A stretch of DNA of 64,000 nucleotides from an uncultured Gammaproteobacteria bacterium (GCA_964465205.1 CAYXJO010000004.1:9671-73670); one strand, 5' to 3'. Positions 2,929-60,530 are shown, numbered from the stretch's first letter. The notes: generated from the sequence alone by a model not told the origin. A program made the numbers and translations.

Positions 2929-2940
2929 TTGGTAAAATTA

Positions 2941-2973
2941 AAACACCCTCCGCTCGGAGGGTGTTTTTGTTTC
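2941..2973. terminator. Bidirectional intrinsic terminator between the convergent giant genes
   Basis: Hairpin CACCCTCC-GCTC-GGAGGGTG, with an A-run on the 5' side and TTTTTG on the 3' side. Confidence 0.6.
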
Positions 2974-2986
2974 GTGTATCAATATT

Positions 2987-10513: not shown

Positions 10514-10777
10514 GCCACCTCACTACTACACATGCTCTTTCGGCGTGGGACCCTCCGGGGTTCCACGCCACTCTTACATTGTTTATGATAGTCCCTTTTT
10601 AGGGACATATCATAGACAGCGTAGGAGTTAAGTCCTTTACATTTTAGAAGTCGTTAAGACCTTTCTGAGAGTTCCTGGTACAAAGAGAGGAACTATTTTA
10701 GTTTCTGTCTCTGTACCATGAACTTATTACCCACGATGTTCGTCACTTTCCTGCCGCAATGGCAAAGGAGGCTCGCA

Positions 10778-11401: not shown

Positions 11402-11421
11402 TCTCAACGACTTCTCAACCC

Positions 11422-11460
11422 AGGTGGGCCGAGCTTCAGCTCGGTCCCACCCATTTTTAG
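11422..11460 (+). terminator. Intrinsic terminator after the OMP-like gene
   Basis: Hairpin GTGGGCCGAGC-TTCA-GCTCGGTCCCAC followed by CCATTTTT. Confidence 0.6.
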
Positions 11461-11681
11461 TGGTCACAATGATTTGTGAATACTAAAAAAGACATAAATT
11501 TATTTGTGTCTTGAGTTCATTAAAATTCGGATTAGAAAAACAAACACTTGGTACAAAGTTGATTGTCTCTTTGGTAATTAGCTTTGTGCCAAGTGATAAA
11601 TTCGGCGAGGTACAAAGCGTAGTGCTTTGTCCGCCGGTGAAAATTGAAAGCGTGTTCTCTACCACAAAGGAGTTTGAAGCC

Positions 11682-13145: not shown

Positions 13146-13493
13146 ACCACCCCACCCGCACGGCGGGCTAATCCGATCACATAACCTAGGGCGGCAGGCT
13201 TCGGCTTGCCCCCTAGGCCTTTTACTTGAGATCATTATTCGTAGTGCTCTCAAGAAAAAGTTGTTTACCAACTATAGAAATTTCCTTACCTGCGGGCGCT
13301 TGTCCTTGTGCGTGAGGTTCGGGAGATTTTTGTGGTGGATAGGCAACTATCCAACATGATCCACTGTGTCTCTCTCCCAGTGGATTTTTGTTTCAACGGA
13401 GAGTTGCCCTTTGAAAATTGAGGATTAGAAAAACAACAACACACACGTCCACGTCTCGTTCCCATCTTTGCATGAAGAAAGGAGAAAATTCTC

Positions 13494-16400: not shown

Positions 16401-17069
16401 GATTACGATCACATGAAGAATTGCACGGACTACGACCGCACCACGGCCGATTCGTGCAACCCAACCACTGGCGAATGCATATACGACCCCATCCCCACCG
16501 ACGGCGACAGCGACGGCGATACCGAAACTGAAGCCGAGATTGATATAACCGACGGCGACCTCGACACCGAGAACGACACCGAAGAAACGCCGGCGTGCAT
16601 CCCGGCCAACTGCGACGACCAAAACCCCTATACGACGGATATTTGCGAGGCCGGCAACTGCCGCCACGTGGATAATCTCGCGCGGGCCTTTGTAATGCAG
16701 TTGCCGATTAACACCCAGATCACCAACGTGATCTTGTGGCCCACTGCGGGCACCGGCTATATCCATGACTACGTCGTCGCCACCGAATTACCAAAGGTTG
16801 ACACCAACGGCGACAGCGTGGTGGATTCGTACGAACTGGATATCTTGGCCGAGTTCTTGGCCGGACGTATCACGGAGCTGCCCGGTTCCGCCCAGGTGAT
16901 CTACCCGGGGTGGGACGGCGACGGCTTCCCGTGTTCGCCGCCTACGCCTACCGGCATCTGTCTGCTCAGCGACGGCACCACCGTTCAGCTGGTCTGGATG
17001 GCGGGCGGTCGTAACGCCCTTGGATGCCCATGGGACGGAGCGGTCGGATTCCCGATCGTTTGTCACTAA
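13494..17069 (+). CDS. Giant acidic lipoprotein (1191 aa) made of about 20 tandem 38-42-aa Cys-rich repeats (C[DN]DGNACT.[DG]D.C..G.C). These resemble the Myxococcus-type cysteine-rich repeat. A C-terminal dockerin/EF-hand-like loop reads DTNGDSVVDSYELD.
   Basis: RBS GAAAGGAG. Lipobox IAGC in MHHTSLSQKLLFVLSVLAFLVIAGC. Acidic DGDTE linkers. The linker DNTEAVDGDIIPDGDSDITE is nearly identical to DNTETADGDIVPDGDSDTTE in the upstream paralog. GC3 is very high. Confidence 0.8.
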   Translation: MHHTSLSQKLLFVLSVLAFLVIAGCGSTTVTTDANDGDMEAVELDNSDGDEPINDGDIEKTEAEADQAEAEEDSTEADTDTDGDTEVENCQNWYPVTPQVAFCDLLEEDLGRLERICYQEQPSRRECSTTKVGAIGFQCSMGATFVICYDTNGAPVTPVVCIVNGERTPAMDSIADTGFPGCDYTVMPVDGDEEEGESEGETEEVEPADGDTEVLPDGDTEEVLPDGDTTEQPEAEAEADNTEAVDGDIIPDGDSDITEIDSDPELPPVCEPACVSDDPCKQAVCVNGTCLYDLLTGLACDDGNACTRVDTCLLGECIGGDEVVCQALDQCHLVGECNPATGTCTSPAANDGTPCNDVSLCTTLDTCLSGVCGGAAVVCNDNNGCTNDSCDPEHGCAFEPNLNACDDHNACTTGDICSNGGCSGTTISCDDLNPCTDDSCDAVLGCRHVPNTASCDDGNWCTVGDVCGGGTCHSGATRDCSTFDSQCSKGICDEANDQCVSDPRPLEGKLCDADANGCTKDDYCHAGDCVKGTVVDCTGQNDQCNTGVCYSTGNNSSVCLKDPTPKQGNICDDGAYCTMGETCNNGECMNGTARNCTVFTDQCNVGTCDETHDTCVPVAVVNGTVCNDDSLCTQSDTCQFGICKGDNPVVCGAQDQCHFVGTCNPSTGTCSNPVKPDNTTCDDGSLCTKEDKCTAGTCGGSTVLCDDNNVCTDDVCLPKAGCLHANNFNPCDDGNACTQGDMCGYGRCEGEAVVCDDGNVCTDDYCDIAAGCKAALNAAPCDDSNACTQVDTCLLGQCVGGNPKTCPAEDECTYAGICEPSDGLCRVQFKPEGLRCNDNDSCTVGEYCALGVCGDGISPCGSQHCQPMSPSGYYCSECWNDGDCQSGFACLHHVCVDTACDDDNACTVDTFNPVMGCRHDQRTCDDGNACTFDFCDTIAGCKTFPLSGIACSSADPNVCNVYKCSAGSCDYDHMKNCTDYDRTTADSCNPTTGECIYDPIPTDGDSDGDTETEAEIDITDGDLDTENDTEETPACIPANCDDQNPYTTDICEAGNCRHVDNLARAFVMQLPINTQITNVILWPTAGTGYIHDYVVATELPKVDTNGDSVVDSYELDILAEFLAGRITELPGSAQVIYPGWDGDGFPCSPPTPTGICLLSDGTTVQLVWMAGGRNALGCPWDGAVGFPIVCH

Positions 17070-17078
17070 TCCTCAACG

Positions 17079-17140
17079 CCCCCTAGGGGGCACAACCGGC
17101 TCGGGGGGGGGAGAAATCTCCCCCCGGCCAAATATTTTTC
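17079..17140 (+). terminator. GC-rich palindromes and terminator at the end of the island
   Basis: Perfect palindrome CCCCCTAGGGGG, followed by hairpin GGGGGGGGAGAAATCTCCCCCC and a T-run. Confidence 0.5.
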
Positions 17141-30126: not shown

Positions 30127-30226
30127 AAATTATCTGTAAATATTATAGCAGATTATGTGCACAAAGTCAAAATAAAAAAGGGCGGTGGTCCGCCCGTGAA
30201 ATGAACTATGGGGCGAGCTGCTTAGC

Positions 30227-30520
30227 TCACCTGTTTTTGTGGTTTTTTGTCACGATCATCCACCCTTCTACGATGGCTGCGACCGGCCAAAACACCCAAC
30301 ACAACAAGAGCATGGTCGAAGCCAGAGCTTGGCTGACTTCTTGCATCTTTTCGATCTCCATATCGGTGTATTGATCATTTTTGAGGCGCTGGACATGTTC
30401 CGGGTTGAATGGAGTTGCGAGTAATTTGATAGTGGATTTCATGTGGAGTAGCATGCTGTAATACAGCACGATACCCGCTAAAATATAGATACTGATAAAG
30501 AGCCATGTGGGCCATTCCAT
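30227..30520 (-). CDS. Small 2-TM membrane protein (97 aa) in a GC-richer islet
   Basis: GGAGG RBS. Hydrophobic helices WLFISIYILAGIVLYY and LLLCWVFWPVAAIVEGWMIV. Own terminator hairpin GGGCGGTGGTCCGCCC at 30183-30203 with a T-run on the minus strand. Confidence 0.55.
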   Translation of the reverse strand: MEWPTWLFISIYILAGIVLYYSMLLHMKSTIKLLATPFNPEHVQRLKNDQYTDMEIEKMQEVSQALASTMLLLCWVFWPVAAIVEGWMIVTKNHKNR

Positions 30521-30661
30521 CTCTTATACCTCCGGTTAAGTGGTTGGGATCACGCCTATGCAATAGGCAGAGGCGTGTGTATTTTAATGATTTTCTTGCC
30601 TTTGTCAAGTTGAAATGTTATAATCTCAAAAGATGTTATAAATCTCTGTTTTCTTGTCTGT

Positions 30662-34436: not shown

Positions 34437-36134
34437 ATGTTACCAGTTTTTAAAAATAAATTATTTTTAAGTGGACTGATTATTTTTCTAGCTTCCTTTC
34501 TGTTGTTTTTACCAAATATTAATGATGGTTTTTTGTCGGACGATTATGATTTTTTGGCACGGATGGACGGTGTCAAAAATTGGTCTTCGGCTTGGGCACA
34601 AATCAATCCCGGTAATCAGTTTTTTTGGCGGCCGATACTAAACACTAGTTTTTTATTGAATTATCTTATTTTCGGCGAGCACTCCGCAGTGAGTTATCAT
34701 CTTTTCAATAATCTGGCGCACGCTCTGGTGGCTCTGTTGGTGTTTCTGATAGTTTGGGAATGGTGGCGCAAATTGGATCGAGCGATTTTGGCGGGGTTGT
34801 TTTTTGGAGTTTATCCCATGCATCACGAATCGGTGACTTGGATTGCCGGTCGCACCGATGTATTGGCGGCCTTGTTTTTTGTAGCCGCTTGGTATTGTTT
34901 TATGTTGTTTTTACGAGGTGCCAAATCAAAATTTTGGTGGGCACTGGTTTTGTGCGGCGTGGCGTTTATTACCAAAGAGGCGGCGTTAGGTTTGCCCGCA
35001 GTTTTATTTGGGGTAGATGTGATTTGGTTTGGTCGTAAAAAAATAAAATATTATATTTTGACTTACGGTCCATTTGCAATTCTGTATTTACTATATTTTT
35101 GCGGTCGTTATTTTTCAATTGGTACTTTGGTAGGGGGGTATCAAAATGCATCCGGCATTATTGCGTTGCATTTGCCGATTAGTCAAGTGTTGGCCTCGCC
35201 ATTTTTTTACCTTACCAAAATGATTAATTATCCATTTTGGGCGGATGGATTTTCGTGGACTAGTGGTTGGGGGCAGATTTTGTTTACGGCGCGCAAGTGG
35301 TGGTTTTTGTTTTTACCTGCTTTAATTTTGTTGTTTATTCAATGGCGTAATAACAATCGGTCGGCGATTAAAGATTTGCCGGCATTGTATATTCTCGTAC
35401 TATTAGCCACCGGTCCAGCCTGGTCGCTAATGGCCGGAATTGATTATAATGGATCGGATAGCCGTTTTATTTACATCCCCACTATTATCGGGTCGATGGT
35501 TTTGGGTTATTTGCTTACTCCAAATTTTTTAAATAATACGCAAAGGAAAATCGTTCGAATAGTTTCGGGATTAGCGATGGTTTTCTTTGTATTTGCATTT
35601 TTTGTGAACTATATACCATGGGCCGAAGCGGCACGAGTTAATATGGTGGTAGAAAAAGATTTACCTATCATATATCAGTCGGTGGTACCAGGAACAATGA
35701 TTTATGTAACCAATTTGCCGGATAACTACTTTGGCGCATATATATTTCGTAATGGTTTTTATGAATTGGCGGAGAATACGCTGAGAGATGAATCCTTGTC
35801 ACCCTCGGCCTACGGCGGTACTTTTTGGCAAATGAAATCAGCCGATAAATACGGCGGTCTTTGCCCTGCTTGGCTCAAACCAGCGGGTGATTTGTTGGTT
35901 TGGGATAAACATTTAGAAAAATTAGTTAGACGTTCAGATTTGTTGGATAGATTAAATACTACCACTGTTTTTGCGATTGATGAAAAATTGGTAAAAAATC
36001 AAGCTAGATATAAACTGCTGGTGTGGAATAACCAACTTTGGTCTGGAGAAGAAAAGTTTGTTATTAGTTTCCCCAAAGATTTACCACTTGGTAAGGTGGC
36101 TGCTAGTTGTCCGTTGTGGAGAATAAGTCAATAA
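34437..36134 (+). CDS. GT-C fold membrane glycosyltransferase-like protein (PMT/ArnT/DUF2723-like), paralog 1
   Basis: Polytopic. N-terminal FLSDDYDFLARMDG loop and a WRPILNTSF...HLFNNLAHALVALLVF pattern shared with the downstream paralog. Confidence 0.5.
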   Translation: MLPVFKNKLFLSGLIIFLASFLLFLPNINDGFLSDDYDFLARMDGVKNWSSAWAQINPGNQFFWRPILNTSFLLNYLIFGEHSAVSYHLFNNLAHALVALLVFLIVWEWWRKLDRAILAGLFFGVYPMHHESVTWIAGRTDVLAALFFVAAWYCFMLFLRGAKSKFWWALVLCGVAFITKEAALGLPAVLFGVDVIWFGRKKIKYYILTYGPFAILYLLYFCGRYFSIGTLVGGYQNASGIIALHLPISQVLASPFFYLTKMINYPFWADGFSWTSGWGQILFTARKWWFLFLPALILLFIQWRNNNRSAIKDLPALYILVLLATGPAWSLMAGIDYNGSDSRFIYIPTIIGSMVLGYLLTPNFLNNTQRKIVRIVSGLAMVFFVFAFFVNYIPWAEAARVNMVVEKDLPIIYQSVVPGTMIYVTNLPDNYFGAYIFRNGFYELAENTLRDESLSPSAYGGTFWQMKSADKYGGLCPAWLKPAGDLLVWDKHLEKLVRRSDLLDRLNTTTVFAIDEKLVKNQARYKLLVWNNQLWSGEEKFVISFPKDLPLGKVAASCPLWRISQ

Positions 36135-37531
36135 TATCTATGTCTAATCGGTGGAAATCCGGGTTGGTGTTTCTAGTGCTTTTTTTGGCAGTGATTTTGG
36201 TGTATTGGCCCACTCTACACAATACTTTTATTTTGGATGATTATGTTTGGATTCAATCATTGAGCTGGGATCAAGTTAGACATTTGTTTGTTGGTTCGTG
36301 GGAGCACGTTAATACCTTGCGTCCGATAATGCGTTTACAATTTTGGTCTAGCCGATTGTTGTTTGGCGAAAATCCTTTTGGCTGGCATCTTACCAATATT
36401 GTTTTGCATACTTTAGTAGCTTGGTGTGCCTACGAGATAGTCAGAAAGACCAGTGCTAACGAAAAGGTGTCTTTTGCAGCAGCTTTGATATTCGCGGTTT
36501 TTCCCACCAATCACGAGACGGTTGCTTGGATTTCCGGCCGCACGCATCCATTTGGTCTGTTACTATCTCTCGCGGCCGCGTTTTTGATTTATTTTAGTGG
36601 CATAATTTTGCGTAAACGGATTTGGTATTTGGTCACCGGTTTCTTGTTGTTATTGGCGAGTTTTTTAACATATGAGGTTTCTTTTGTAGTCCCGTTTGCT
36701 TTGCTATTTATTTGGATAATAGTGGGGCCACATTCGCGTCGAGCGTTGTTTTCCGTAATTAGCAGTTTTGGACTGTTGGGGTGCCTAATCGTTTATCGTT
36801 GTCTAGTGTTGGGTGGGTCGATTGGCTCAGTGGGTGCCCAGCACGACAATATCTTTTTAGCACCTTTTCTAAATTTTAAATTATTCAATATTTTGTATTG
36901 GCACTCACGCGAGCTCAAATGGCTGTTGGTGTTTTTGGTATTTTTGTTGATATTAAATTTTGTTTTACACAGACAGCAATATAAATATGATTCGCGTGTG
37001 TCCAAAATTATATTATTTTTTCTATTTTCGTTATTATCCTATGCGCCCTTTGTAATTACCAAAGGAGTGGCGCCGCGTTTTCTTTACTCATCATTATTCT
37101 TTTGTTTTATAACCTTAGCTTTGGCATACGATTATTTGTACATAGAAATGTCGAGGGCTATAAAGGGGTTGGTGGTTGTGGTGACAGTTTTCATTTTAAT
37201 ATTATCGTTTTGGCAGGCGCGCCAAATGGCCGAACGATATAATATTTTGGCCAATAGTTATGTCGAAATTCAACAAACTCTGTTAAGTGATTTTCCAGTC
37301 TGGCCATCTGGTAAGGATATGCTTTTTTATAATATTCCCAATGGTTACCAAGGTATTTTGGCGTTTTTGACATATTTTGATAAAGCGGTGCAGTATGTTT
37401 ATTATGGCCAACCGGTGGGCAAAGTATATCGGGCCGATCAATTGTCACCGGATGAGTTGAACAAGGTGTTAGCCGAGAAGCCAATAACTTATAAATTTCT
37501 TGGATTTGATAGTGGGATAATACGTCAGTAA
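36107..37531 (+). CDS. GT-C fold membrane glycosyltransferase-like protein, paralog 2
   Basis: ILDDYVWIQSL...RPIMRLQFW...GWHLTNIVLHTLVAWCAY, the same architecture as paralog 1. The start may be the internal ATG at 36140. Confidence 0.5.
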   Translation: MSVVENKSIISMSNRWKSGLVFLVLFLAVILVYWPTLHNTFILDDYVWIQSLSWDQVRHLFVGSWEHVNTLRPIMRLQFWSSRLLFGENPFGWHLTNIVLHTLVAWCAYEIVRKTSANEKVSFAAALIFAVFPTNHETVAWISGRTHPFGLLLSLAAAFLIYFSGIILRKRIWYLVTGFLLLLASFLTYEVSFVVPFALLFIWIIVGPHSRRALFSVISSFGLLGCLIVYRCLVLGGSIGSVGAQHDNIFLAPFLNFKLFNILYWHSRELKWLLVFLVFLLILNFVLHRQQYKYDSRVSKIILFFLFSLLSYAPFVITKGVAPRFLYSSLFFCFITLALAYDYLYIEMSRAIKGLVVVVTVFILILSFWQARQMAERYNILANSYVEIQQTLLSDFPVWPSGKDMLFYNIPNGYQGILAFLTYFDKAVQYVYYGQPVGKVYRADQLSPDELNKVLAEKPITYKFLGFDSGIIRQ

Positions 37532-37551
37532 AAATGTTTGTCATTATTTAC

Positions 37552-37581
37552 AAACTCGTGTAAAATATATGGTATTAAAAC
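37552..37581. repeat. AT-rich inverted-repeat motif AAAATATATGGTAT-taaa-ACCATATATTTT, copy 2
   Basis: Same 12-bp arms as copy 1. Lies 27 nt upstream of the tkt start. Confidence 0.5.
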
Positions 37582-39812: not shown

Positions 39813-39845
39813 GACGGCCCCGAGAGGGGCCGTTGGTGTTTATAG
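39813..39845 (+). terminator. Intrinsic terminator after tkt
   Basis: Hairpin ACGGCCCC-GAGA-GGGGCCGT followed by a T-rich tail. Confidence 0.5.
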
Positions 39846-40345: not shown

Positions 40346-40510
40346 GCTAGAGAAGATCGATTTTTTGACCGTCATACTCGGTTGTTACCGCCGTCAGGCC
40401 CTCCTCGTGATCGTAAACTCTTTCGGAGGTCACCGTCCACGGTTCGTCGCAGTCGTCGATCAGTTGGTCTCCTTTTTTTAGTTGCATGAAATCTTCGCGC
40501 GTGATCATCT
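40346..40510 (-). CDS. Unannotated small acidic protein (54 aa) with a strong GGAGG RBS, upstream of and co-oriented with the tautomerase-like gene
   Basis: Translation MITREDFMQLKKGDQLIDDCDEPWTVTSERVYDHEEGLTAVTTEYDGQKIDLL. RBS GGGAGGTAAAAG-ATG. GC-rich codons. Confidence 0.4.
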
Positions 40511-40555
40511 TTTACCTCCCGGCCTTCTGGCCTGTTTGGGTTTTTAACACCAGTA

Positions 40556-40636
40556 AAAAGAGCCAAAGAACAATTTACATTAGCATAAATTCGCCCATTT
40601 GTCAACCCCCAAAAAATCCTGTAAAATACCTCTGTT
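40556..40636 (+). promoter_or_regulatory. Consensus sigma70 promoter cassette A (upstream block, -35 TTGTCA 40599-40604, 17-nt spacer, extended -10 TGTAAAAT 40620-40627), driving the P-type ATPase
   Basis: Near-identical about 80-bp blocks occur at 43830-43912 and 47290-47365. Confidence 0.6.
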
Positions 40637-40659
40637 TTTCAAACTATATTTTTTGTGTT

Positions 40660-43152
40660 ATGCCAACAATCACTGATCTCAAAATTTCGCAAATCGCGAA
40701 CTATGTCGGCCTCAATAGTGCCGACGCGCAACTGGCTCAGAAACAATATGGTCTCAACCTACGCCCTGTGGCCAAACGCAAGACGTGGCTTCATCGTCTT
40801 TGGGACATCTTCACGGAGCCGATGATGTTTTTGATTCTTGCGACTGGAGTTTTGTATTTCTTTTTTCACGATTGGGTAGAAGCGGTGATAATTTTGGCAT
40901 CAATTATCCCTATTGGCCTCATTGAATTTATCCAAGAGGGGCGTACTGATAAAGCGATTGAAGTACTCGATAAGTTCATGGTGCAGTATGTGCTAGTCTA
41001 TCGTGATGGCAAACTGCAAAAAATGGAAAGTAAATATCTCGTGCCGGGGGATGTGGTGCATTTGACCGCAGGTGACAAAATTCCGGCCGATGGCGTGCTT
41101 ATTAATTCTCCGGGGCTCACGGTAGATGAGTCGATTTTGACTGGGGAATCCGTCACTGTGGTCAAAGCGCAGCTGGTGAATCACGATGAAATTAAAGACG
41201 AAAATATTTTGTATCAAGGTACCATGATCGCACAGGGCGAGGGTCAACAATTGGTTCTGGATACCGGCGTGAATACCAAATATGGCAAGTTGGGCGCCTT
41301 ACTTGAAAGTATCGAGGGCCAAAAAACCCCATTGCAGAAAAAAATTCATAAATTGGTAAATGGTGTAGCAGTGGTCGCGTTTATTACAGCTGTTCTTACT
41401 ACAGTGCTTGTGGGTTGGTCGCGAGGTGTGATGGAGGGTGTGTTAGCTGGGCTCACGATGGCTATGTCGCTTATCCCCGAAGAATTTCCAGTGGTATTTT
41501 CCGTGTTTCTCATTTTGGGTGTATTGCGTCTAGCCAAAGAAAAAGCACTGACACGGAAAATGGTTATGGTTGAGACTTTGGGGAGTGCTACGGTCATTTG
41601 TACGGATAAAACCGGCACCTTGACCGAGGGGAGCATGTCTTTAGAGCAGATATATTTTAGCGGAAAAATTTTTGATGTAAAAAAAACTACAATAATTAAA
41701 AATGAATTTTCCGATTTGATTACCGCGTCACTACTCGCTTTGGAACGAGTTGCGGTGGATCCAATCGAGGTCGAAATGCAAGATTTTGCCCGTGTTCAAG
41801 GATTAAATCCGGAGGAATTTTATTCGGGTTATACTCTCAAACACGATGCGCCCTTTGATGCCAAAACGAAAATGGTGCATCATATTTGGCAAAATAATGA
41901 TACGAAAAAATGCGCGCAATACAGCGTGGGCGCGCCCGAATCGGTGTTCGGGTGTTGTGAATTTATCGGAAATGGTCGGGCTGAGGTTTTAGCCATAAAC
42001 GACAAACTAGCAGGTGATGGTTATCGTGTAATTGCGGTAGCGCAAAAAGAAACCGATTGCAGTGATCGAGTAGAATTATCCGGCTTGCGTTTCGTGGGGC
42101 TACTCGTGATGCGCGATCCGGTGCGCGCGGGAGTAAAAGATGCGATTCGCGTGTGCCAAGAAGCGGGGATACGGGTAGTGATGATTACTGGTGATAACAA
42201 GCTTACCGCACATAATGTCGCCGAGAGTTTGGGCATGAAACATAATGAAGAAATGATTAGCGGTGATGAATTTGCCGAATTAACCACTGAAGGAATTTTA
42301 AAAATTGTAAAATCACATGATATTTTCGCACGTATCCGTCCGGAACAGAAATTTATGATTGTGGAAGCACTCCAAAAACAGGGTGAGGTAGTAGCGATGA
42401 CTGGTGATGGGGTCAACGATGCGCCAGCGCTGAAAAAAGCGGATATTGGCATTGCGATGGGTAGTCGCGGTACCGAGGTGGCACGCGCCGCTGCGGGCAT
42501 GGTACTACTTGATGATAATTTTTCTACGATTGTGGACGCGGTCAAGGAAGGTCGTCGAATTTATGATAATATGCGCAAGGCGTTTATGTTTTTGTTTTCA
42601 TTTCATTTGCCGATTATCGGTCTCGCGGTGGTGCCGCTGTTATTTAATCAGCCAATGATTTTTATGCCTATCCATATAATTTTTTTGGAATTGATTTGTG
42701 ATCCGGCGTCGGTACTCGGTTTTGAGCGTGACCATGCGCGCCTTGGGTTGCTTCAAGAACCGCCTAGGCCGGTGAGTGAACCACTTATAAATCCGAAATT
42801 ATGGTGGCAGATTATCGTGCAGGGTGTGGCGATTCTTGCGGTATCACTCGGATTTTATTATTACGGCGTGCGATTGGGTGGTGCAGAGCTCGGCCGTACG
42901 CTCGCGTTTTCCGCGCTCGTGGTATCACAGGTGGCGCTTATACTCCTCACGCGTGAGTGGGTGCAGGTGAAAAGTAATTTCTTATTGTTGTTTATAGCCG
43001 TAGCCACATTGGTCGCTTTGGTGGCACTTCTTACTGTACCGTTCGCGCGCGGGATTTTTCATTTTGCGCCGATCAGTTGGGCGCTCGTGGATAGCGTTAT
43101 TCTGATTCCGTTTGCGGTGATGGGGGCGGTGAGTTTGGTGGTGAGGAAATAA
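40660..43152 (+). CDS. P-type cation-transporting ATPase (E1-E2; Ca2+/Mg2+-type)
   Basis: DKTGTLTEG phosphorylation motif. MTGDGVNDAPALKKADIGIAMG hinge motif. PEEFP in TM4. TGES actuator motif. The start was reset to the ATG at 40660 downstream of the promoter cassette. Confidence 0.85.
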   Translation: MPTITDLKISQIANYVGLNSADAQLAQKQYGLNLRPVAKRKTWLHRLWDIFTEPMMFLILATGVLYFFFHDWVEAVIILASIIPIGLIEFIQEGRTDKAIEVLDKFMVQYVLVYRDGKLQKMESKYLVPGDVVHLTAGDKIPADGVLINSPGLTVDESILTGESVTVVKAQLVNHDEIKDENILYQGTMIAQGEGQQLVLDTGVNTKYGKLGALLESIEGQKTPLQKKIHKLVNGVAVVAFITAVLTTVLVGWSRGVMEGVLAGLTMAMSLIPEEFPVVFSVFLILGVLRLAKEKALTRKMVMVETLGSATVICTDKTGTLTEGSMSLEQIYFSGKIFDVKKTTIIKNEFSDLITASLLALERVAVDPIEVEMQDFARVQGLNPEEFYSGYTLKHDAPFDAKTKMVHHIWQNNDTKKCAQYSVGAPESVFGCCEFIGNGRAEVLAINDKLAGDGYRVIAVAQKETDCSDRVELSGLRFVGLLVMRDPVRAGVKDAIRVCQEAGIRVVMITGDNKLTAHNVAESLGMKHNEEMISGDEFAELTTEGILKIVKSHDIFARIRPEQKFMIVEALQKQGEVVAMTGDGVNDAPALKKADIGIAMGSRGTEVARAAAGMVLLDDNFSTIVDAVKEGRRIYDNMRKAFMFLFSFHLPIIGLAVVPLLFNQPMIFMPIHIIFLELICDPASVLGFERDHARLGLLQEPPRPVSEPLINPKLWWQIIVQGVAILAVSLGFYYYGVRLGGAELGRTLAFSALVVSQVALILLTREWVQVKSNFLLLFIAVATLVALVALLTVPFARGIFHFAPISWALVDSVILIPFAVMGAVSLVVRK

Positions 43153-43155
43153 CAA

Positions 43156-43200
43156 AAATATACTGTGCGCTGAAAGTATATTTTGTTATTTATCATTTTA
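43156..43200 (+). terminator. AT-rich hairpin terminator after the ATPase gene
   Basis: AAAATATACT...AGTATATTTT 10-bp stem followed by a T-rich tail. Confidence 0.4.
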
Positions 43201-43213
43201 TGAATAAAAAAAA

Positions 43214-43235
43214 GAGCAGGGGAAGGCCCCTGCTC
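43214..43235 (-). terminator. Intrinsic terminator of the minus-strand Cys-rich gene
   Basis: 9-bp stem GAGCAGGGG/CCCCTGCTC. The T-run on the minus strand appears as the A-run at 43205-43213 on the plus strand. Confidence 0.55.
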
Positions 43236-43252
43236 GCGGTGAGTGATAGTGT

Positions 43253-43765
43253 TTATTGTGGGCGTGCCACTTTGTGCATATACACACCGGATACGGATTG
43301 CTTTACTTCGTACCAATCTTTGGCGAGGCGTTCCTCGCAGGTGCATCGGTACGGTCCGCATCGATTCGATTTGGCAGCCACCTCAAACCGGTTGCAACAC
43401 CACGCGTCGTTCGGCGTGATGGTGCATTGAATATCGCCGAAGACAAATTCATACAGTTCATCGTTCATTCCGCCGCGGTTCATTTCAAAATCCCCACGTC
43501 GGTGACGCCACTGGCCAGTCATTTCGCAGTTCTCTGCCGAAACTCCGCCGACACAGCCGACAAAATTGACGGTCAGACTTCCGTCCAGATCCATGAGGAT
43601 GGCGAGGGTGGAACCAGATGTGGGTTTTGAGACTTCGACTTCGGTTGGTTCATCAAACGGTTTGGGTCCGTCGAGTAAATTGTTGATCGTGAATGCGATC
43701 ATCAACACGACACACAATCCCAAACCCAAACCTAAGTATGCCTTTTTCCAGAAATTTTTATCCAC
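43253..43765 (-). CDS. Membrane-anchored secreted Cys-rich protein (170 aa) in a GC-rich islet
   Basis: GTG start with a GAGGAGGG RBS. TM/signal anchor LGLGLCVVLMIAFTI. 10 Cys in the ectodomain, including a CC pair. Confidence 0.55.
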   Translation of the reverse strand: MDKNFWKKAYLGLGLGLCVVLMIAFTINNLLDGPKPFDEPTEVEVSKPTSGSTLAILMDLDGSLTVNFVGCVGGVSAENCEMTGQWRHRRGDFEMNRGGMNDELYEFVFGDIQCTITPNDAWCCNRFEVAAKSNRCGPYRCTCEERLAKDWYEVKQSVSGVYMHKVARPQ

Positions 43766-43829
43766 TTGTCCCTCCTCGGCCTCCCGGCCTGTTATTGGTT
43801 AGGCTCTGTTTTGTTGTTTTCACCTCATG

Positions 43830-43912
43830 AAAAGAGCACAAAGAACAATTTACAATAGCACAAATCCGCCCATTTGTCAATACCCCCGAAAAGGTGTAAA
43901 ATATACCTGTTT
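43830..43912 (+). promoter_or_regulatory. Consensus sigma70 promoter cassette B (-35 TTGTCA 43874-43879, extended -10 TGTAAAAT 43895-43902), driving gpsA
   Basis: Same block as cassette A, with a 17-nt spacer. Confidence 0.6.
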
Positions 43913-43935
43913 TTAGTATCTAAACGTATAAAAAT

Positions 43936-44940
43936 ATGCCAAGAAAAATCTCGGTGGCCGTGCTCGGCGCCGGTAATATGGGTACCGCACTCGCTTCTGT
44001 AATCGGCAAAAATGGCCACAAAGTAAATATTTGGAATCATGAGGGCGACCCGGAGCCACTCGCACAAATAAACGAGACGCACGAAAATAAAAAGTATCTA
44101 GCTGGTATTGCATTGTCTCCAAATATTCACGCTGAATCTAGCTTGGAACAAGCAGTCCAAGGCGCGCAGGTGATTGTTTTTTGTGTCCCTAGCAATTTTA
44201 TGGCCGCGCTTGTGGAGCGAACAGTACAGTATTTACCTTGTGGAGTTGTGTGCGTGGACGCGTCCAAAGGTCTCGACGAAAAATCTTTGTTCCTCGTGCC
44301 GGATATTATCGCCGATAAAATTCCCGAATGTATCGGCAAAAGTGTGGCGAGTATTTCTGGACCAGCCATCGCACGCGACATGGCTGAAGGGAAATTCACC
44401 GCCATGAATGTGGCAAGCAAAGACACGAAAGCGATCAAAATTGTCCGCAAAATTTTTGAAAATGAAAATCTCAAATTAGTGCCGACCAAAGACGTGATTG
44501 GGGTAGAACTCGCCGGTTCGTTTAAAAATGTGTATGCTATAGCGATGGGAATTTGCGACGGCCTCGAATACCCCATGAACACCAAAGCGGCGCTACTCGT
44601 GATGGCGCTCAAAGAAGTCGGAGTGCTCATCAAAAAAATGGGTGGAAAAGCACACACAGTATATGATCTTGCCGGTCTTGGCGATCTCGCCGCTACTGGA
44701 CTCTGCGCCATTTCGCGCAATCGCCGTTTCGGAGAATTTTTAGCCAAAGGGATTGGTCGTGACGAAGCAATCAAACAGGTGGGGCAGGTGGTGGAGGGTG
44801 CGGGTGCTAGCAAAGTCCTCAAAACCCTCGCCGAAAAACATAATGTCAAAATGCCATTCGCGGATTTTGTGTATGAAGTTGTTTGGGAAGATAAAAACGC
44901 GAGCGAGATGATAAAAAAACTTTTGGCCGATTATGCGTAG
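43936..44940 (+). CDS. gpsA: NAD(P)H-dependent glycerol-3-phosphate dehydrogenase
   Basis: Rossmann motif KISVAVLGAGNMGTALA and the GpsA C-terminal domain. 334 aa. Confidence 0.85.
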   Translation: MPRKISVAVLGAGNMGTALASVIGKNGHKVNIWNHEGDPEPLAQINETHENKKYLAGIALSPNIHAESSLEQAVQGAQVIVFCVPSNFMAALVERTVQYLPCGVVCVDASKGLDEKSLFLVPDIIADKIPECIGKSVASISGPAIARDMAEGKFTAMNVASKDTKAIKIVRKIFENENLKLVPTKDVIGVELAGSFKNVYAIAMGICDGLEYPMNTKAALLVMALKEVGVLIKKMGGKAHTVYDLAGLGDLAATGLCAISRNRRFGEFLAKGIGRDEAIKQVGQVVEGAGASKVLKTLAEKHNVKMPFADFVYEVVWEDKNASEMIKKLLADYA

Positions 44941-46651
44941 TATCGAAGACAAAGAAATACGTTGGTTGTCGATAGTCTTTTTATTTATTTCGATTATCAT
45001 TATCGTGCGTCTTTTTATTTTACAAGTAAAAGAGCATGCCTACTACGAAGCGTTTGCTACGGGAACACACGAAATTTATCAGCAACTTTATCCGGTACGA
45101 GGCGCCATCTATTTTCAAGATACACGTACCCACGATGAATTTCCGGTGGCGGTAAATAAAGATTTTTATTTGATTTATGCCGTGCCCAAAGAAATTAAAT
45201 CATCCGATATAGTATCTACCACCGATAAATTGGCCGCTATTTTGGGTGTTGATGATAATATTAAAAAAGAAATATTTGAAAAATTGAGCAAACCAAATGA
45301 CGTATATGAACCAATAGCCAAGAAACAGCCAGAAAGCGTGGTGGCGGCTATAAAAGATCAAAAACTTGGTGGTATTTATGCTACCACTCAAGTCTATCGT
45401 TATTATCCGGAATTAGAATTGGCTGGAAATATTTTGGGTTTTACCGGTTTTGATGATAATGGCGGTTTGATAGGTAGTTATGGTATCGAAGGTTATTGGA
45501 ACAAGATTTTGGCCGGTCGGGGTGGGTTTATGGCCGGTGAACGTGGTGCCAAGGGTGGTTGGATTGCTTTGGCTGGTCGCAGTCTTACCCCGGCAGAAGA
45601 TGGTGCGGATTTGGTTTTGACTATTGATCGAGCGATAGAAAATAAAGCCTGCGAACGATTAAAAGCCGGCATGGAAGAATTCAAAGCTAAAAGTGCGGCC
45701 TTAACCATGATTGATCCCAAAACCGGAGCTATCGTAGCAATGTGCAGTTATCCGAATTTTGATCCTAATAATTATTCCAAAGTAGAGGACGAAAAATCTT
45801 TTAATAATACGAATATTTTTACTCCGTATGAACCGGGTTCAGTATTCAAATCAATTACCATGTCGATGGCTTTGGATTTGGGGCTCGTTAATCAAGACAC
45901 TACCTTTATCGACCCATGTCAGCGTAAAATTGCTGGCTATACTATCAAAAATGCGCTGGATAAATGTTATGGCACTGCTACTATGACCAATGTTTTGGAA
46001 AATTCGATAAATACTGGCATGATTTGGGTAGAAGAAAAAATCGGGCAAGAGAGATTCCGTGATTATATAAATAAATTTGGTTTTGGAGAAAAACTCGGCG
46101 TGACTATGAATACTGAAGCTAGAGGTAATATTGAACAGCTTGCTAGAAAAAGACCGATTGATTATGCCACTGCTTCGTTTGGGCAAGGTATTACCGTCAC
46201 TCCGCTGCAATTGGCTATGGCCTATAGCGCCCTCGCCAATGGTGGCCGTATGTATAAACCTTATGTGGTTTCCGAAATCCGTTATCCCAATGGCAAAAAA
46301 GAGAAAACTGAACCGGAATTGGTAGACAACATTGTTTCCGAACGCACCAGCAAAATTATTACCGGCATGCTTACCTCGGTAGTGGAGAACACTTATAAAA
46401 ATAGCGTAAAAATGAAAGATTATTATATTGCCGGCAAAACTGGTACGGCGCAAATTCCTGGGCCGGGTGGATATACCGACGAAACCAATCACACTTTTTG
46501 TGGATATTTTCCGGCACAAAATCCCAGGTGGGTGATGGTAGTGAAATATGAAGCCCCAGAACGCCAATGGGCCGAGAGTACGGCGGCGGTAGTTTTCAAA
46601 GATGTGGCGGATTTTGTGTTGGATTATTACGCGGTAGCTAAAGAGAGATAA
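44933..46651 (+). CDS. Class-B penicillin-binding protein (PBP2/FtsI-like transpeptidase)
   Basis: N-terminal membrane anchor. SxxK (GSVFKS), SxN (ENSINT) and KTG (GKTGTAQ) motifs. Confidence 0.85.
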   Translation: MRSIEDKEIRWLSIVFLFISIIIIVRLFILQVKEHAYYEAFATGTHEIYQQLYPVRGAIYFQDTRTHDEFPVAVNKDFYLIYAVPKEIKSSDIVSTTDKLAAILGVDDNIKKEIFEKLSKPNDVYEPIAKKQPESVVAAIKDQKLGGIYATTQVYRYYPELELAGNILGFTGFDDNGGLIGSYGIEGYWNKILAGRGGFMAGERGAKGGWIALAGRSLTPAEDGADLVLTIDRAIENKACERLKAGMEEFKAKSAALTMIDPKTGAIVAMCSYPNFDPNNYSKVEDEKSFNNTNIFTPYEPGSVFKSITMSMALDLGLVNQDTTFIDPCQRKIAGYTIKNALDKCYGTATMTNVLENSINTGMIWVEEKIGQERFRDYINKFGFGEKLGVTMNTEARGNIEQLARKRPIDYATASFGQGITVTPLQLAMAYSALANGGRMYKPYVVSEIRYPNGKKEKTEPELVDNIVSERTSKIITGMLTSVVENTYKNSVKMKDYYIAGKTGTAQIPGPGGYTDETNHTFCGYFPAQNPRWVMVVKYEAPERQWAESTAAVVFKDVADFVLDYYAVAKER

Positions 46652-46656
46652 AAAAA

Positions 46657-46674
46657 GAGCGGGGGAACCCGCTC
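46657..46674 (-). terminator. Hairpin terminator for the minus-strand small membrane genes (partly bidirectional)
   Basis: GAGCGGG-GGAA-CCCGCTC, with an A-run at 46651-46656 on the plus strand. Confidence 0.5.
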
Positions 46675-46697
46675 AAAATCGGTTGCGTTGTCCGTGG

Positions 46698-47000
46698 TTA
46701 ACCGCCAATGATCCATGCGCCGATGCTGACGCCGAAAATCATTGCGATACCAACGAAGACCAGTGGCAGCATCGCTGGCATATCATTTAACCAGCCCCGA
46801 TATTCCGTGTTTTGTTTGATGTGGCCGAACAGGCCTACCCATGCGGTAATTGCACCTGTAACCACACCGATCCCCGCCGAAAAGTTCGTTGGGAGTCCGG
46901 AGTATATGACGAAGCATGCTATTGTAACCGCTCCTACCACACCGATTGTGATCCATGACCACAGCGGCTTCTGGTCAATCATTTTAAACAGGTAGTTCAT
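46698..47000 (-). CDS. Small 3-TM membrane protein (100 aa), GC-rich islet
   Basis: Hydrophobic helices. Codons GC-richer than the flanks. Confidence 0.5.
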   Translation of the reverse strand: MNYLFKMIDQKPLWSWITIGVVGAVTIACFVIYSGLPTNFSAGIGVVTGAITAWVGLFGHIKQNTEYRGWLNDMPAMLPLVFVGIAMIFGVSIGAWIIGG

Positions 47001-47003
47001 GTT

Positions 47004-47246
47004 TCACTCCTTTCTGTCCTCGGCGATGCCGAGGTGTTTCATAATCTTTTTCTGGTTGGTGAGAATCTGATCCACCCACATGAAGATACATGCCGTAGCC
47101 AGAATGGCTACGAAGCCGATGTAGTGGAGCGTCGCCAGAATCTCTGGCGAAGTTACGTCGGCCTTAGGAAGGAGCGTCTTGAACACGCCGGTGATCAAAA
47201 TCCAAACCGCCGCGCCGAAGAAACCAATCCTTAATGACGTTGCCAT
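47004..47246 (-). CDS. Small 2-TM membrane protein (80 aa), GC-rich islet
   Basis: Hydrophobic helices. A 3-nt gap separates it from the downstream small gene. Confidence 0.5.
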   Translation of the reverse strand: MATSLRIGFFGAAVWILITGVFKTLLPKADVTSPEILATLHYIGFVAILATACIFMWVDQILTNQKKIMKHLGIAEDRKE

Positions 47247-47289
47247 GTCTTCCTCCTGCCCCGTGCATTTATTGTTTAAGGTGCTCTAG

Positions 47290-47365
47290 CTCACGCTAGC
47301 CAATTACAATAGCACAAAATCACCCACTTGTCAAGACCCTCCAATTAACGTAAAATATAGGCATA
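47290..47365 (+). promoter_or_regulatory. Consensus sigma70 promoter cassette C (-35 TTGTCA 47328-47333, -10 TAAAAT 47351-47356), driving murF
   Basis: Shares CAATTACAATAGCACAAAAT...TTGTCAA-N17-TAAAAT with cassettes A and B. Confidence 0.55.
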
Positions 47366-47385
47366 AATAGCCTATTTTAATATTT

Positions 47386-48685: not shown

Positions 48686-48724
48686 TATAAAAAAAGCGCG
48701 GTCAAACCGCGCGTCGAGTTTTTT
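48686..48724. terminator. Bidirectional intrinsic terminator
   Basis: GCGCGGT-CAAA-ACCGCGC flanked by an A-run and a T-run. Confidence 0.6.
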
Positions 48725-48998
48725 ATCCACACTTAATATCGCTGTATGCAATGAATGTTATCGCTGCTCCAAACGCTATACCGATAGCTATAGCTACCAG
48801 GTATTTTTCTGAGGAGTATCTGTGTCGTGCGCGTGTTTTTTCGTTAAAGTATAATATTCCTACGGTTATTATACCAAGGAATATCAACATCATGCAAAAT
48901 ATTTCCGAAGCAACGAATGCCTCCATGAAATACTTCGCACCAATTCCGGCTATTGTTGCCGACGCCACAGGTCCAATCGTGTTAATTATTTTTTTCAT
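48723..48998 (-). CDS. Small membrane protein (91 aa)
   Basis: Three hydrophobic helices. Confidence 0.4.
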   Translation of the reverse strand: MKKIINTIGPVASATIAGIGAKYFMEAFVASEIFCMMLIFLGIITVGILYFNEKTRARHRYSSEKYLVAIAIGIAFGAAITFIAYSDIKCG

Positions 48999-49152
48999 TA
49001 TAACCTTCCGTTTTCTTATTTGGTAGTAACATGTTTAGATTATGTCATGGAAATTTTTAAAAGTGCCTTAATCAAAGTAGCACCAAATCGACAGCCTGTC
49101 AATATTTTAGATCAAAAAATCTCATACATCATTTACAGCCTACCTTTTAATT

Positions 49153-59075: not shown

Positions 59076-59157
59076 ACTTGATAATATTTATTTGGTGGTA
59101 TTATAACACGATTTTGAGTAAATATATAGTAGCGAAGTGTTAATTAGATAGTCTCTC

Positions 59158-59186
59158 CTTGACAAAGTCAGTGTTTTGTGTTACAA
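59158..59186 (+). promoter_or_regulatory. Perfect-consensus sigma70 promoter TTGACA-N17-TACAAT for the GC-rich lipoprotein gene
   Basis: TTGACA at 59158-59163 and TACAAT at 59181-59186. Confidence 0.55.
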
Positions 59187-59280
59187 TGTCATGTCTTGTT
59201 CTTTGCTAACTGACTGAGTTATGCCGTGCCATGGTGGTTCGGTATCGAATAATAACAACAAACGAGAAACGAGGTTTTAG

Positions 59281-59781
59281 ATGAGAAAAGCTCTGTGTCT
59301 TTTGATAGGGATGGTTATTCTGGGCACCATCGGTTGCGCTGCCAGCACCAACGAACCGTCTTACGCGGAAAAAGTCTTGGGGGGCACCCACGAACTGCGA
59401 AAGATGGTGGAACGGCAGGGTAGTCAGACCACTACTTCCAGCAGCTTCTTCTTGGTCGTAGGCAGTATGACCCAGACTCAAACTGCCGAAACCCTGATCA
59501 AATTCTCCTGGAAGATGAATGACGGCACCTACGCTATTTCATCTCTGCCTCTGGAGAAAATTCGCGTTCGGATCGACGAAACCGCAACGTCGCCTACCGC
59601 TCAGTTTCGCTGGCGGCCGTGGCGCGGCGGTTGCCTGTGCCGCACTGCGATCCCAGAACTTCAGACGCTAATGGACAACAACGTTGTTTACATGCTTCTG
59701 AACGTGAGATCGGCCGATTGGCCGGTACAGGTCAGCCTTCCGCTCAACGAAAACAAGGCGGAATTCATCCCGTCAAAGTAA
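59281..59781 (+). CDS. Lipoprotein (166 aa) in a GC-rich islet
   Basis: Lipobox LGTIGC in MRKALCLLIGMVILGTIGCAAS. RBS GAGG. GC is about 55%. Confidence 0.6.
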   Translation: MRKALCLLIGMVILGTIGCAASTNEPSYAEKVLGGTHELRKMVERQGSQTTTSSSFFLVVGSMTQTQTAETLIKFSWKMNDGTYAISSLPLEKIRVRIDETATSPTAQFRWRPWRGGCLCRTAIPELQTLMDNNVVYMLLNVRSADWPVQVSLPLNENKAEFIPSK

Positions 59782-59823
59782 AGTGTGGCGAAAAATTCAA
59801 AGGACTGAGCAGGCCGACTGCTT

Positions 59824-59847
59824 CCGCCAGCAATGGCGGTTTTTTTA
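59824..59847 (+). terminator. Intrinsic terminator after the lipoprotein gene
   Basis: CCGCC-AGCAAT-GGCGG followed by TTTTTTT. Confidence 0.65.
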
Positions 59848-59921
59848 TTGACCAACAGTGTAATTTGTGCTAGGGTTATTTCAAAGACAGATCTTTTTAC
59901 AATCTTGCCAGGAGGTCGAGA

Positions 59922-60530
59922 ATGGATATAAAAGCGATTTTAGCGATGATGCGCGTGGTTATGGACCTCAAGAAAGTTAAACGTGCGGGCTGGAACCGTA
60001 AGGCCCAGAAAGGTGGCACCTCTAAGACGAGGAAAGTTAAGGACCTTGAAAGCGTGGCCGACCATACGTACAGCACTGTCATGTTGGCGATGTGGTTGTT
60101 GCCCCAACTGGGTTACGTAATGGCGGAAAATCAGCTCAAAATTATCAAGATGCTGCTTATCCATGATTTGCCAGAAAGTCTGTTGGGAAAAGATCAGATT
60201 GTTTACGACAAAGACGATCGCATCAATTTGACTTTATCCCAGCAAAAGAAACTAATGGAACGAAAAGCCTTGCGTCAATTCTTGATAGCGGTCAAAGCAC
60301 CTGCGGAATACTGGGATTTGTACGTTGAGTTTGACGACAATAAAAGTCGGATGGCTCAACTCGCGCATCAACTCGACAAACTCGATGCGGTACTCCAGGC
60401 TCACCATTACGCCAAGATGCGCGAACAATCTCGGCCGGAAGAATTTTTGGCCGCAGCCAAACTCGTGATCACCGATCCGGTGTTGGTTGAGTTGTTGGAC
60501 AAAATTCCTGGGTTCTACAGCGAGCTTTAA
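59922..60530 (+). CDS. HD-domain phosphohydrolase (YfbR-like 5'-deoxynucleotidase family)
   Basis: Strong AGGAGG RBS. HD motif region VADHTYSTVMLAMWL...IHDLPESLLGD. Confidence 0.65.
   Translation: MDIKAILAMMRVVMDLKKVKRAGWNRKAQKGGTSKTRKVKDLESVADHTYSTVMLAMWLLPQLGYVMAENQLKIIKMLLIHDLPESLLGKDQIVYDKDDRINLTLSQQKKLMERKALRQFLIAVKAPAEYWDLYVEFDDNKSRMAQLAHQLDKLDAVLQAHHYAKMREQSRPEEFLAAAKLVITDPVLVELLDKIPGFYSEL

Follow-up and report, generated by a model that had tools for sequence, protein, structure and literature searches.

The locus and its repeated blocks

We analysed a 64,000-nt stretch of DNA (hereafter the window; GCA_964465205.1 CAYXJO010000004.1:9671-73670) from an assembly labelled as an uncultured Gammaproteobacteria bacterium, which GpsA homologues place in Candidatus Magasanikbacteria, a lineage of the candidate phyla radiation (CPR). 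Within it, a run of cell-envelope genes in the order tkt, P-type ATPase, gpsA, penicillin-binding protein (PBP) and murF is interrupted at three junctions (tkt|ATPase, ATPase|gpsA and PBP|murF) by small modules of one and the same order, namely a predicted intrinsic terminator, one or two minigenes on the minus strand, and a repeated block of about 150 bp predicted to act as a promoter in both directions. The features of the three modules, counted from the first base of the window, are as follows; L numbers designate contigs of relatives described below.

39813..39834, minus strand: module 1 predicted terminator hairpin, T-run on the minus strand, just past the tkt stop codon; orthologous hairpin in L008 and L018
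39861..40214, minus strand: module 1 gene of 117 aa, predicted tautomerase-superfamily fold, own Shine-Dalgarno (SD) site, GC content at third codon positions (GC3) 0.53
40347..40508, minus strand: module 1 first open reading frame (ORF), 53 aa, acidic, no transmembrane (TM) segment, SD GGGAGG 6 nt before the ATG, GC3 0.61
40509..40659, both strands: block 1, whole control region; ATPase ATG at 40660 behind an SD-less predicted leader of about 26 nt
40509-40570, minus strand: block 1 predicted leader with SD and GGCC-AGAA-GGCC hairpin
40577-40582 and 40600-40605, minus strand: block 1 predicted promoter, -10 TAATGT and -35 TTGACA
40599-40604 and 40622-40627, plus strand: block 1 predicted promoter, -35 TTGTCA and -10 TAAAAT
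43214..43235, minus strand: module 2 predicted terminator, GAGCAGGGGCCTTCCCCTGCTC plus T8 on the minus strand; 16 nt identical to the L008 terminator at the same junction
43253..43765, minus strand: module 2 gene of 170 aa, N-terminal TM anchor and Cys-rich domain, GTG start, SD GAGGAGG, GC3 0.57
43766..43935, both strands: block 2; gpsA ATG at 43936; predicted minus-strand leader of about 80 nt with GGCC-GGGA-GGCC hairpin
43852-43880, minus strand: block 2 predicted promoter, TTGACA-17-TGC-TATTGT
43874-43902, plus strand: block 2 predicted promoter, TTGTCA-17-TAAAAT
46657..46674, minus strand: module 3 predicted terminator; orthologous hairpin after the PBP stop codon in L009
46698..47000, minus strand: module 3 second ORF, 100 aa, three TM-like segments, SD, GC3 0.59
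47004..47246, minus strand: module 3 first ORF, 80 aa, two TM segments, C-terminal IMKHLGI motif, GC3 0.69
47247..47385, both strands: block 3; murF ATG at 47386
47306-47334, minus strand: block 3 predicted promoter, TTGACA-17-TGC-TATTGT
47328-47356, plus strand: block 3 predicted promoter, TTGTCA-17-TAAAAT
37538..37566, plus strand: predicted tkt promoter (comparator), TTGTCA-17-(TG)TAAAAT

The blocks were found at 40556-40636, 43830-43912 and 47290-47365, precisely where an initial annotation made from the sequence had placed them, and they are homologous. A hidden Markov model of a 66-nt core, searched with nhmmer across the 64 kb, recovered the three copies at E values of 7.7e-19, 5.6e-17 and 6.9e-16 (of the order of 1e-16 to 1e-19), with the next-best match at E 0.31. 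A repeat search aligned 56 nt in three copies at 77-79% identity; copies 1 and 2 resemble each other over 105 nt at 74% in the same search, or over 51 nt at 92.2% with blastn, while block 3 matches block 2 over 36 nt at 86% or 56 nt at 79%. Copy 3 is homologous over its 3' part only, about 56-66 nt from 47300. The consensus previously quoted for all three copies hence describes copies 1 and 2 and applies to copy 3 without its AAAGAGCACAAAGAAC part. A 35-nt core searched with up to three mismatches matches copies 1 and 2, against a shuffle expectation of 0, and TTGTCA-N16-18-TAAAAT occurs four times in the window (the three blocks and the tkt promoter) vs 0.06 expected. Chance convergence is rejected, both by the zero expectation in shuffles and by the conservation of spacer and leader positions that have no hexamer function; the tkt promoter, by comparison, has the core hexamers alone in common with the blocks and no upstream block. 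Nor does the block behave as the standard housekeeping promoter of this organism, for which many copies away from any minigene islet would be expected: within the 64 kb, nhmmer detected it at module junctions only, beside backward-facing minigenes.

Predicted promoters, leaders and terminators

Judged by consensus, each block consists of two predicted sigma-70-type promoters set back to back in a compact arrangement, with outward-facing hexamer pairs at 16-18 bp spacing on both strands in all three copies. The plus-strand promoters (score 10/12) stand upstream of the ATPase gene, gpsA and murF, as first proposed, with predicted 5' untranslated regions of 23-27 nt before the start codons and no SD. 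The “conserved upstream block”, read on the minus strand, is mainly a second predicted promoter, TTGACA-17-TG(C)-TATTGT (TAATGT in copy 1), scoring 9-10/12 with a TG extension; its presence in every copy supports the earlier suggestion that this region may hold a divergent promoter. Corresponding minus-strand promoters score 10-11/12 in L008, 12/12 in L009 and 8/12 in the diverged murF copy of L016. The extended -10 formerly attributed to the plus-strand promoter belongs instead to the minus strand (TGC-TATTGT or TGC-TAATGT): on the plus strand the TG abuts TAAAAT, one base out of register, and copy 3 has CG, neither being a canonical extension; the promoter scan likewise did not count this TG as one. 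The minus-strand -35 overlaps the plus-strand TTGTCA by 5 bp on a near-palindrome, TTGTCAA/TTGACAA, and because the two -35 sites coincide the two promoters probably compete for polymerase. Their predicted start sites lie about 64 bp apart. An operator within the upstream block, also raised initially, is neither needed nor excluded by the data.

The minus-strand leader (53-80 nt) is conserved. At its end stand a small hairpin and, 4-6 nt ahead of the start codon of the first islet gene, a strong GGAGG SD. The GC-rich string reported to recur at module junctions does recur, but its nature is different from a junction scar: on the minus strand CCTCCCGGCC reads as the SD site plus a GGCC-N4-GGCC hairpin, i.e. 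as a ribosome-binding site and hairpin. The hairpin keeps its position and varies in sequence, with GGCC/GGCC arms in four blocks, GCCAC/GUGGU in L016 and UUUUGCCU/AGGCAAGA in L009. A search of 39.5-49.5 kb against Rfam at E <= 5 returned no leader or riboswitch family, the Histone3 and PhrS matches being terminator hairpins or sub-threshold, and leader folding z-scores ranged from 0 to -1.95. A leader that sequesters the SD, with CUCUUUU pairing to GGAGG, was predicted in five of seven leaders; as these fold no better than shuffles, we retain it as a weak lead only.

At its other end, each islet is closed by a predicted intrinsic terminator with a T-run on the minus strand only. Ahead of the terminator of module 2, directly 3' of the ATPase stop codon, lies a perfect 10-bp A/T-rich inverted repeat (AAAATATACT ... 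AGTATATTTT, 43154-43185), which is partly similar to the region of the plus-strand -10 and start at 43898-43910.

Insertion, turnover and loss among relatives

We collected contigs of related metagenomic genomes through their GpsA homologues; L017 and L019 derive from Rifle groundwater (PRJNA268031). In the outgroups L012, L013, L014 and L028 (GpsA 63-66% identical), gpsA, PBP and murF are contiguous, and the PBP|murF gap measures 8-34 bp. In L009 (GpsA 74% identical), tkt, the ATPase gene, gpsA and the PBP gene are 4-7 bp apart and murF is 12 bp from a methyltransferase gene; PBP|murF alone holds a minus-strand gene, of 78 aa and homologous to the 80-aa gene of the window, together with a diverged block whose predicted minus-strand promoter is a perfect TTGACA-17-TGA-TATAAT. 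Because the flanking genes are separated by no more than 4-34 bp in five outgroup species and at two of the three junctions in L009, the modules are insertions.

In the species represented by L008 and L015-L019 (GpsA 83% identical), blocks are found upstream of the ATPase gene, gpsA and murF, with copies at the same junctions in L008 and L016, and the cargo differs from that of the window, with one gene of 125 aa, a pair of 87+50 aa and one gene of 158 aa. One family, with members of 80, 87 and 78 aa, occupies PBP|murF in both the window and L009 and ATPase|gpsA in L008. In L018, terminator, cargo (125/131 aa, 81% amino acid identity) and block are duplicated together around an MNT-HepT pair. 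These tight gaps and this duplication of a whole module bear out the proposal that promoter and islet were inserted or duplicated as one module. The pair itself (L018 4036-4669) is a nucleotidyltransferase/HEPN toxin-antitoxin system in operon orientation, located between tkt and the ATPase gene.

A module can also be lost. L029, whose GpsA is 96% identical to that of L008, is missing 558 bp at ATPase|gpsA, comprising terminator, cargo, leader and the minus-strand -10; the plus-strand promoter is intact and stands directly after the ATPase stop codon, and the indel shows only about 2 nt of microhomology. The tkt|ATPase module of L029 contains an ORF with a TM segment, which is related to proteins of L018, and a tautomerase-like gene with only 22% identity to that of the window. 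A recombination breakpoint exactly at module 2 between L029 and L008 was considered and rejected, as the identity profile shows a mosaic tract inside the ATPase gene instead. This tract (L029 7500-9000) has 63-80% nucleotide identity centrally, compared with 91-100% in the flanking block, gpsA and PBP, and indicates recombination between close relatives. Another variable spot of the syntenic block lies between the sulfatase gene and tkt, where the window has two extra plus-strand membrane-protein genes (34437-37531; 565 and 474 aa), L009 has neither, and L029 has MBOAT and ALGX genes.

The same observations invite a second reading, in which promoter, leader, SD and terminator serve as recombination anchors between which unrelated ORFs are exchanged, without an integrase, through homology-facilitated recombination following DNA uptake. 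The blocks would then be resident “expression slots” of recombinase-free gene capture in a CPR bacterium, swapping foreign or newly born ORFs, and such slots, each bringing a promoter that restarts transcription, would for that reason multiply along an essential operon. In support, the first ORFs of four modules (53, 170, 125 and 87 aa) are unrelated and yet follow homologous leaders up to the SD; at ATPase|gpsA, the window and L008 share a conserved terminator and block around cargo that is unrelated; and one gene family appears at different junctions. However, some cargo is distantly related, such as the 22% identical tautomerase-like genes of the window and L029 and a TM-QDP ORF common to L029 and L018, and this kinship fits fast divergence with partial loss equally well. 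The anchors are moreover short (about 20 nt for the terminators), and the four lineages sampled showed neither donor copies nor cassettes in circular or free form. We therefore regard gene capture of this kind as unlikely.

Minigene cargo

The five islet genes stand apart from 31 native genes in two respects. Their GC3 is 0.53-0.69 vs 0.35-0.48 (Mann-Whitney p = 2e-4), whereas whole-gene GC differs moderately (0.49-0.51 vs about 0.36-0.48), so that the description of the islets as GC-rich is clearly justified at third codon positions and only moderately so for whole genes. All five carry SD sites, compared with 1/31 native genes (Fisher p = 1.6e-5), native leaders being A/T-rich and nearly devoid of SD. 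TM segments are present in 10 of 13 cargo proteins across lineages, and the cargo proteins of the window show no pairwise similarity by blastp.

The initial label of a tautomerase-like protein for the 117-aa product of module 1 is well founded. Its family comprises 634 representative homologues, with M1-P2 nearly invariant in 40 of them, and its AlphaFold2 model (predicted local distance difference test 96.4) contains two beta-alpha-beta units, for which Foldseek returned fused 4-OT, cis-CaaD and MIF as best matches (E 3e-6, template modelling score about 0.7). The window protein itself has no Pfam match at E <= 0.01; a family-wide scan found DUF1904 in 4/40 members and Tautomerase in 2/40, at E 0.006-0.009. 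By its Pro1 and modelled fold the protein belongs to the tautomerase superfamily. The remaining cargo proteins received no Pfam, NCBIfam, PADLOC or PHROG assignment, the 53-aa ORF included. The 170-aa Cys-rich protein is an ORFan that matched only itself among 5.8 billion clusters, and the 80-aa family consists of three clusters, the two homologue clusters both coming from close relatives. A defence or phage origin of the cargo was rejected: PADLOC and PHROGs gave no significant match, and a SLATT_1 match to the 100-aa protein is far below threshold (19 bits vs a cut-off of 41).

Since most cargo proteins have 50-100 aa and one to three TM segments, they could also be hydrophobic peptides resembling type I toxins, held in check by antisense read-through and forming selfish addiction modules. 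Read-through antisense RNA is plausible because the terminator hairpins lack a plus-strand T-run. Nevertheless, not all cargo is of this type (the tautomerase-fold protein and a protein of 158 aa are soluble, and the 53-aa protein is acidic), no toxin or defence model matched, and the module lost from L029 left no trace of an antitoxin requirement, which makes an addiction function very improbable.

Two further genes of the window resemble the islets in expression style and have no block. At 59150-60530, a 166-aa protein of unknown function with a signal-peptide-like start and a 202-aa HD-domain protein are encoded on the plus strand by GC3-rich (0.65 and 0.58), SD-bearing genes, each with its own predicted TTGAC(A/C)-17 promoter and a TGTG-type extended -10.

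Constraint on the blocks

Between the window and L008, four-fold degenerate sites are 44-45% identical, i.e. near saturation, and identity in the blocks is 66-70% over their whole length, rising to 92-97% in the core. Because this identity persists while four-fold sites approach saturation, the blocks are under purifying selection.

Such constraint might reflect regulation. If the blocks were mainly operators, for instance through an ACAAAT-N6-ATTTGT palindrome over the -35, they would be alike through shared regulation and not through copying, and the factor involved would co-regulate the envelope genes (ATPase, gpsA, murF) and the small membrane proteins. Evolution far slower than at neutral sites is consistent with this, as are the envelope-related functions of all flanking genes and a 6+6 palindrome without mismatch in block 2 and in the ATPase block of L008. 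Yet block 3 and the copies of L016 and L009 retain only 4/6 of the palindrome, which may be a by-product because its arms coincide with the plus-strand -35 (TTGT) and the TGTG extension of the minus-strand -10. The sites are also missing at these junctions in relatives whose genes lie 4-7 bp apart; the similarity spans about 150 nt and takes in leader, hairpin and SD, far beyond what an operator needs; and no regulator gene was found nearby among the window ORFs scanned. A regulon as the source of the resemblance thus appears doubtful, and we give it little weight.

Further modules in the window

The phenomenon extends beyond the three blocks first described, to 30.1-30.7 kb and 48.7-49.2 kb.

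30170..30661, minus strand: additional module M0 at the ATP-grasp|murB junction, predicted terminator hairpin at 30180-30195
30227-30520, minus strand: M0 ORF, 97 aa, two TM segments, SD GGAGG, GC3 0.60
30521-30661, both strands: M0 diverged block, predicted TTGCCT-17-TATAAT towards murB and TTGACA-16-TAAAAT on the minus strand
48696..49152, minus strand: possible module M4 at murF|methyltransferase, predicted terminator at 48696-48712
48723-48998, minus strand: M4 ORF, 91 aa, TM segment, GC3 0.38, weak SD
49074-49102, minus strand: M4 predicted promoter, TTGACA-17-TGC-TACTTT

The M0 block shares 14 identical nt (TTGCCTTTGTCAAG) with the murF block of L009, in which the ATP-grasp|murB junction measures 99 bp and holds no ORF. 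M4 has the same architecture with faint block similarity (nhmmer E 1.3-2.1), and is found neither in L009, where the junction is 12 bp, nor in L016 and L029, where it is 87 bp and holds no ORF. Altogether, five modules occupy one 19-kb syntenic stretch, every one of them facing backward.

A probable self-sufficient insertion cassette

The explanation we favour, and consider fairly likely, is that terminator, minigene(s) and bidirectional promoter constitute a self-sufficient insertion cassette that was repeatedly inserted into an old cell-envelope operon. In such a cassette, the rightward TTGTCA-17-TAAAAT promoter would re-initiate transcription for the housekeeping gene that follows (P-type ATPase, gpsA or murF) behind an SD-less leader, the leftward TTGACA-17-TGC-TATTGT promoter would transcribe the leader and then one or two small genes, mostly for membrane proteins, and the intrinsic terminator would shield the upstream housekeeping gene from antisense transcription. 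The operon may tolerate the module because antisense transcription is stopped at the terminator and the downstream gene is re-primed by the rightward promoter. By parsimony, the gene arrangements of the relatives point to an ancestrally tight tkt-ATPase-gpsA-PBP-murF operon which the module would have entered first at PBP|murF, to be copied later to other junctions; the cargo would afterwards have diverged or been replaced, duplicated or deleted, with the promoter block kept under purifying selection. Copying probably proceeded by illegitimate or short-homology recombination, because the window encodes no recombinase, the modules have no terminal inverted repeats or target-site duplications, and the indel between L029 and L008 shows only 2 nt of microhomology.

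Several points weigh against this scenario. The comparison covers about 64 kb of the window genome and four related species or strains, and all promoters, terminators and leaders are consensus predictions. A scan of some 55 major window ORFs found no recombinase, transposase or integrase that could move such a cassette, and the module ends showed no terminal inverted repeats or consistent target duplications. Orthologous blocks are no closer to each other than paralogous ones, a pattern to be expected alike from duplication just ahead of the split, from gene conversion and from shared constraint; the latter two could for this reason mimic recent copying. The old 78-aa gene of L009 remains SD-led and GC3-rich (0.52 vs 0.29-0.33 in host genes), and simple recent horizontal transfer does not explain this GC3. 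Finally, block similarity in M0 and M4 is faint enough to leave in doubt whether they are homologous to the three core blocks.

Relation to known systems

The closest precedent is that of putative mobile promoters, in which homologous upstream regions precede non-homologous genes within one genome, with a threshold of >50 nt aligned at >=80% identity (Matus-Garcia, Nijveen & van Passel 2012, PMC3488235). Blocks 1 and 2 pass this threshold (51 nt, 92.2%) and block 3 falls just below it (56 nt at 79%, or 36 nt at 86%). The flanking genes are non-homologous, with P-type ATPase, GpsA and MurF downstream according to Pfam and cargo without pairwise similarity (blastp) upstream. Duplication by recombination, mechanism iii of PMC3488235, is the likely origin in both cases. 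Unlike putative mobile promoters, the modules of the window are bidirectional, travel with leader, SD, minigene cargo and terminator, and lie inside a formerly tight operon instead of at arbitrary gene starts. We find them best filed under promoter propagation, as a bidirectional promoter with leader, minigene slot and terminator that spreads along one operon, and not as a new kind of system.

A classification of divergent promoters, reportedly that of Beck and Warren (1988), is said to include back-to-back pairs with overlapping -35 regions. The blocks resemble these in having two outward sigma-70-type promoters with common upstream DNA, on which joint polymerase binding is probably impossible, and differ in forming a repeated conserved cassette, where the classical pairs are one-off regulatory regions. 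In the promoters studied by Warman and colleagues, the common symmetrical element is reportedly the -10, with closely spaced starts. In contrast, the common element of the window blocks is the -35 (TTGTCAA), and the -10s are separate and about 40 bp apart; in block 2 they lie at 43852-43857 and 43897-43902, and the two promoters overlap only at the -35, at 43874-43880. In symmetrical bidirectional promoters, and by prediction in the blocks too, a symmetrical element lets RNA polymerase engage either way, giving divergent transcription (Warman et al., bioRxiv 10.1101/2020.01.31.928960; PMC12825309).

Integron cassettes are similar in that their small genes, variable and in many cases ORFans, depend for expression on a promoter region that is fixed and resident. 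Unlike these, the modules have no integrase, attC/attI sites or array, possess their own predicted terminators, and run against the direction of the host operon. The major ORFs of the 64-kb window contain no integrase or recombinase domain; an inverted-repeat search of the three regions yielded short, weak pairs only, and inspection of the same regions revealed no conserved RYYYAAC/GTTRRRY cores. The blocks could still be relics of a miniature inverted-repeat transposable element, an insertion sequence or an integron, each block being the end of a mobile element with an outward promoter, or an attC/attI-like site. Repeated non-coding DNA beside variable genes is typical of such elements, and mobile elements are one listed route of promoter propagation (PMC3488235). 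A relic of this type is nonetheless hardly credible, given that terminal inverted repeats and target-site duplications (or any consistent direct repeats) are absent at the module ends, that neither transposase nor integrase occurs among the roughly 55 major window ORFs scanned, that Rfam gave no match, and that the cassettes are dispersed and not arrayed. The idea of an inverton, of a transposable element or of attC was likewise dropped, there being no flanking inverted repeats or target duplications.

Pattern matches in metagenome and viral contigs (TTGACA-N12-TTTGTGCTATAAT, in GC-rich bacteria and phages) were rejected as unrelated near-consensus promoters. Because they match model positions of about 6-39 only, they are look-alikes of the minus-strand promoter and not the module. 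In a collection of genome contigs, neither the block pattern nor the GpsA protein gave a match. One identical look-alike (TTGACAAATGGGTTTCTTTGTGCTATTGT) occurs in the GC-rich contigs L001, L002, L004 and L006, from four different samples.

Other features of the window

Elsewhere, a GC-rich island at 9200-17100 (GC 0.50-0.64, GC3 about 0.76, in a genome of about 42% GC) encodes very large Cys-rich repeat proteins in which a CDDGNxCT unit recurs >14 times; Pfam Dicty_CTDC matches a 1191-aa ORF at 13494-17069, and a predicted near-consensus promoter (TTGACA-17-TGATATAGT) lies at about 9351-9379. The island is likely to result from horizontal acquisition or from an assembly or binning chimera. Pfam gave no match for a pair of very long ORFs at 25-8824, one of 967 aa (plus strand) and one of 1945 aa (minus strand).

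Significance

The window and its relatives offer natural before and after states of a tight operon that absorbs new genes in the opposite orientation and is predicted to keep its downstream essential genes expressed. The insert, bounded by a terminator at one end and by a two-way promoter at the other, amounts to a solution that is re-used at neighbouring junctions. It also marks fast-turnover small membrane proteins in Magasanikbacteria, equipped with strong SD sites in an otherwise nearly SD-less genome. The window contains no 16S rRNA gene. A subgroup of Parcubacteria has no anti-SD motif in its 16S rRNA (PMC9297842), and the SD-led minigenes bear on how CPR bacteria express accessory or acquired genes. 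Should the blocks turn out to be expression slots, SD-dependent translation of their cargo would represent a separate expression regime for accessory minigenes. Finally, the block of about 150 bp is a candidate bidirectional promoter part for a group without genetic tools.

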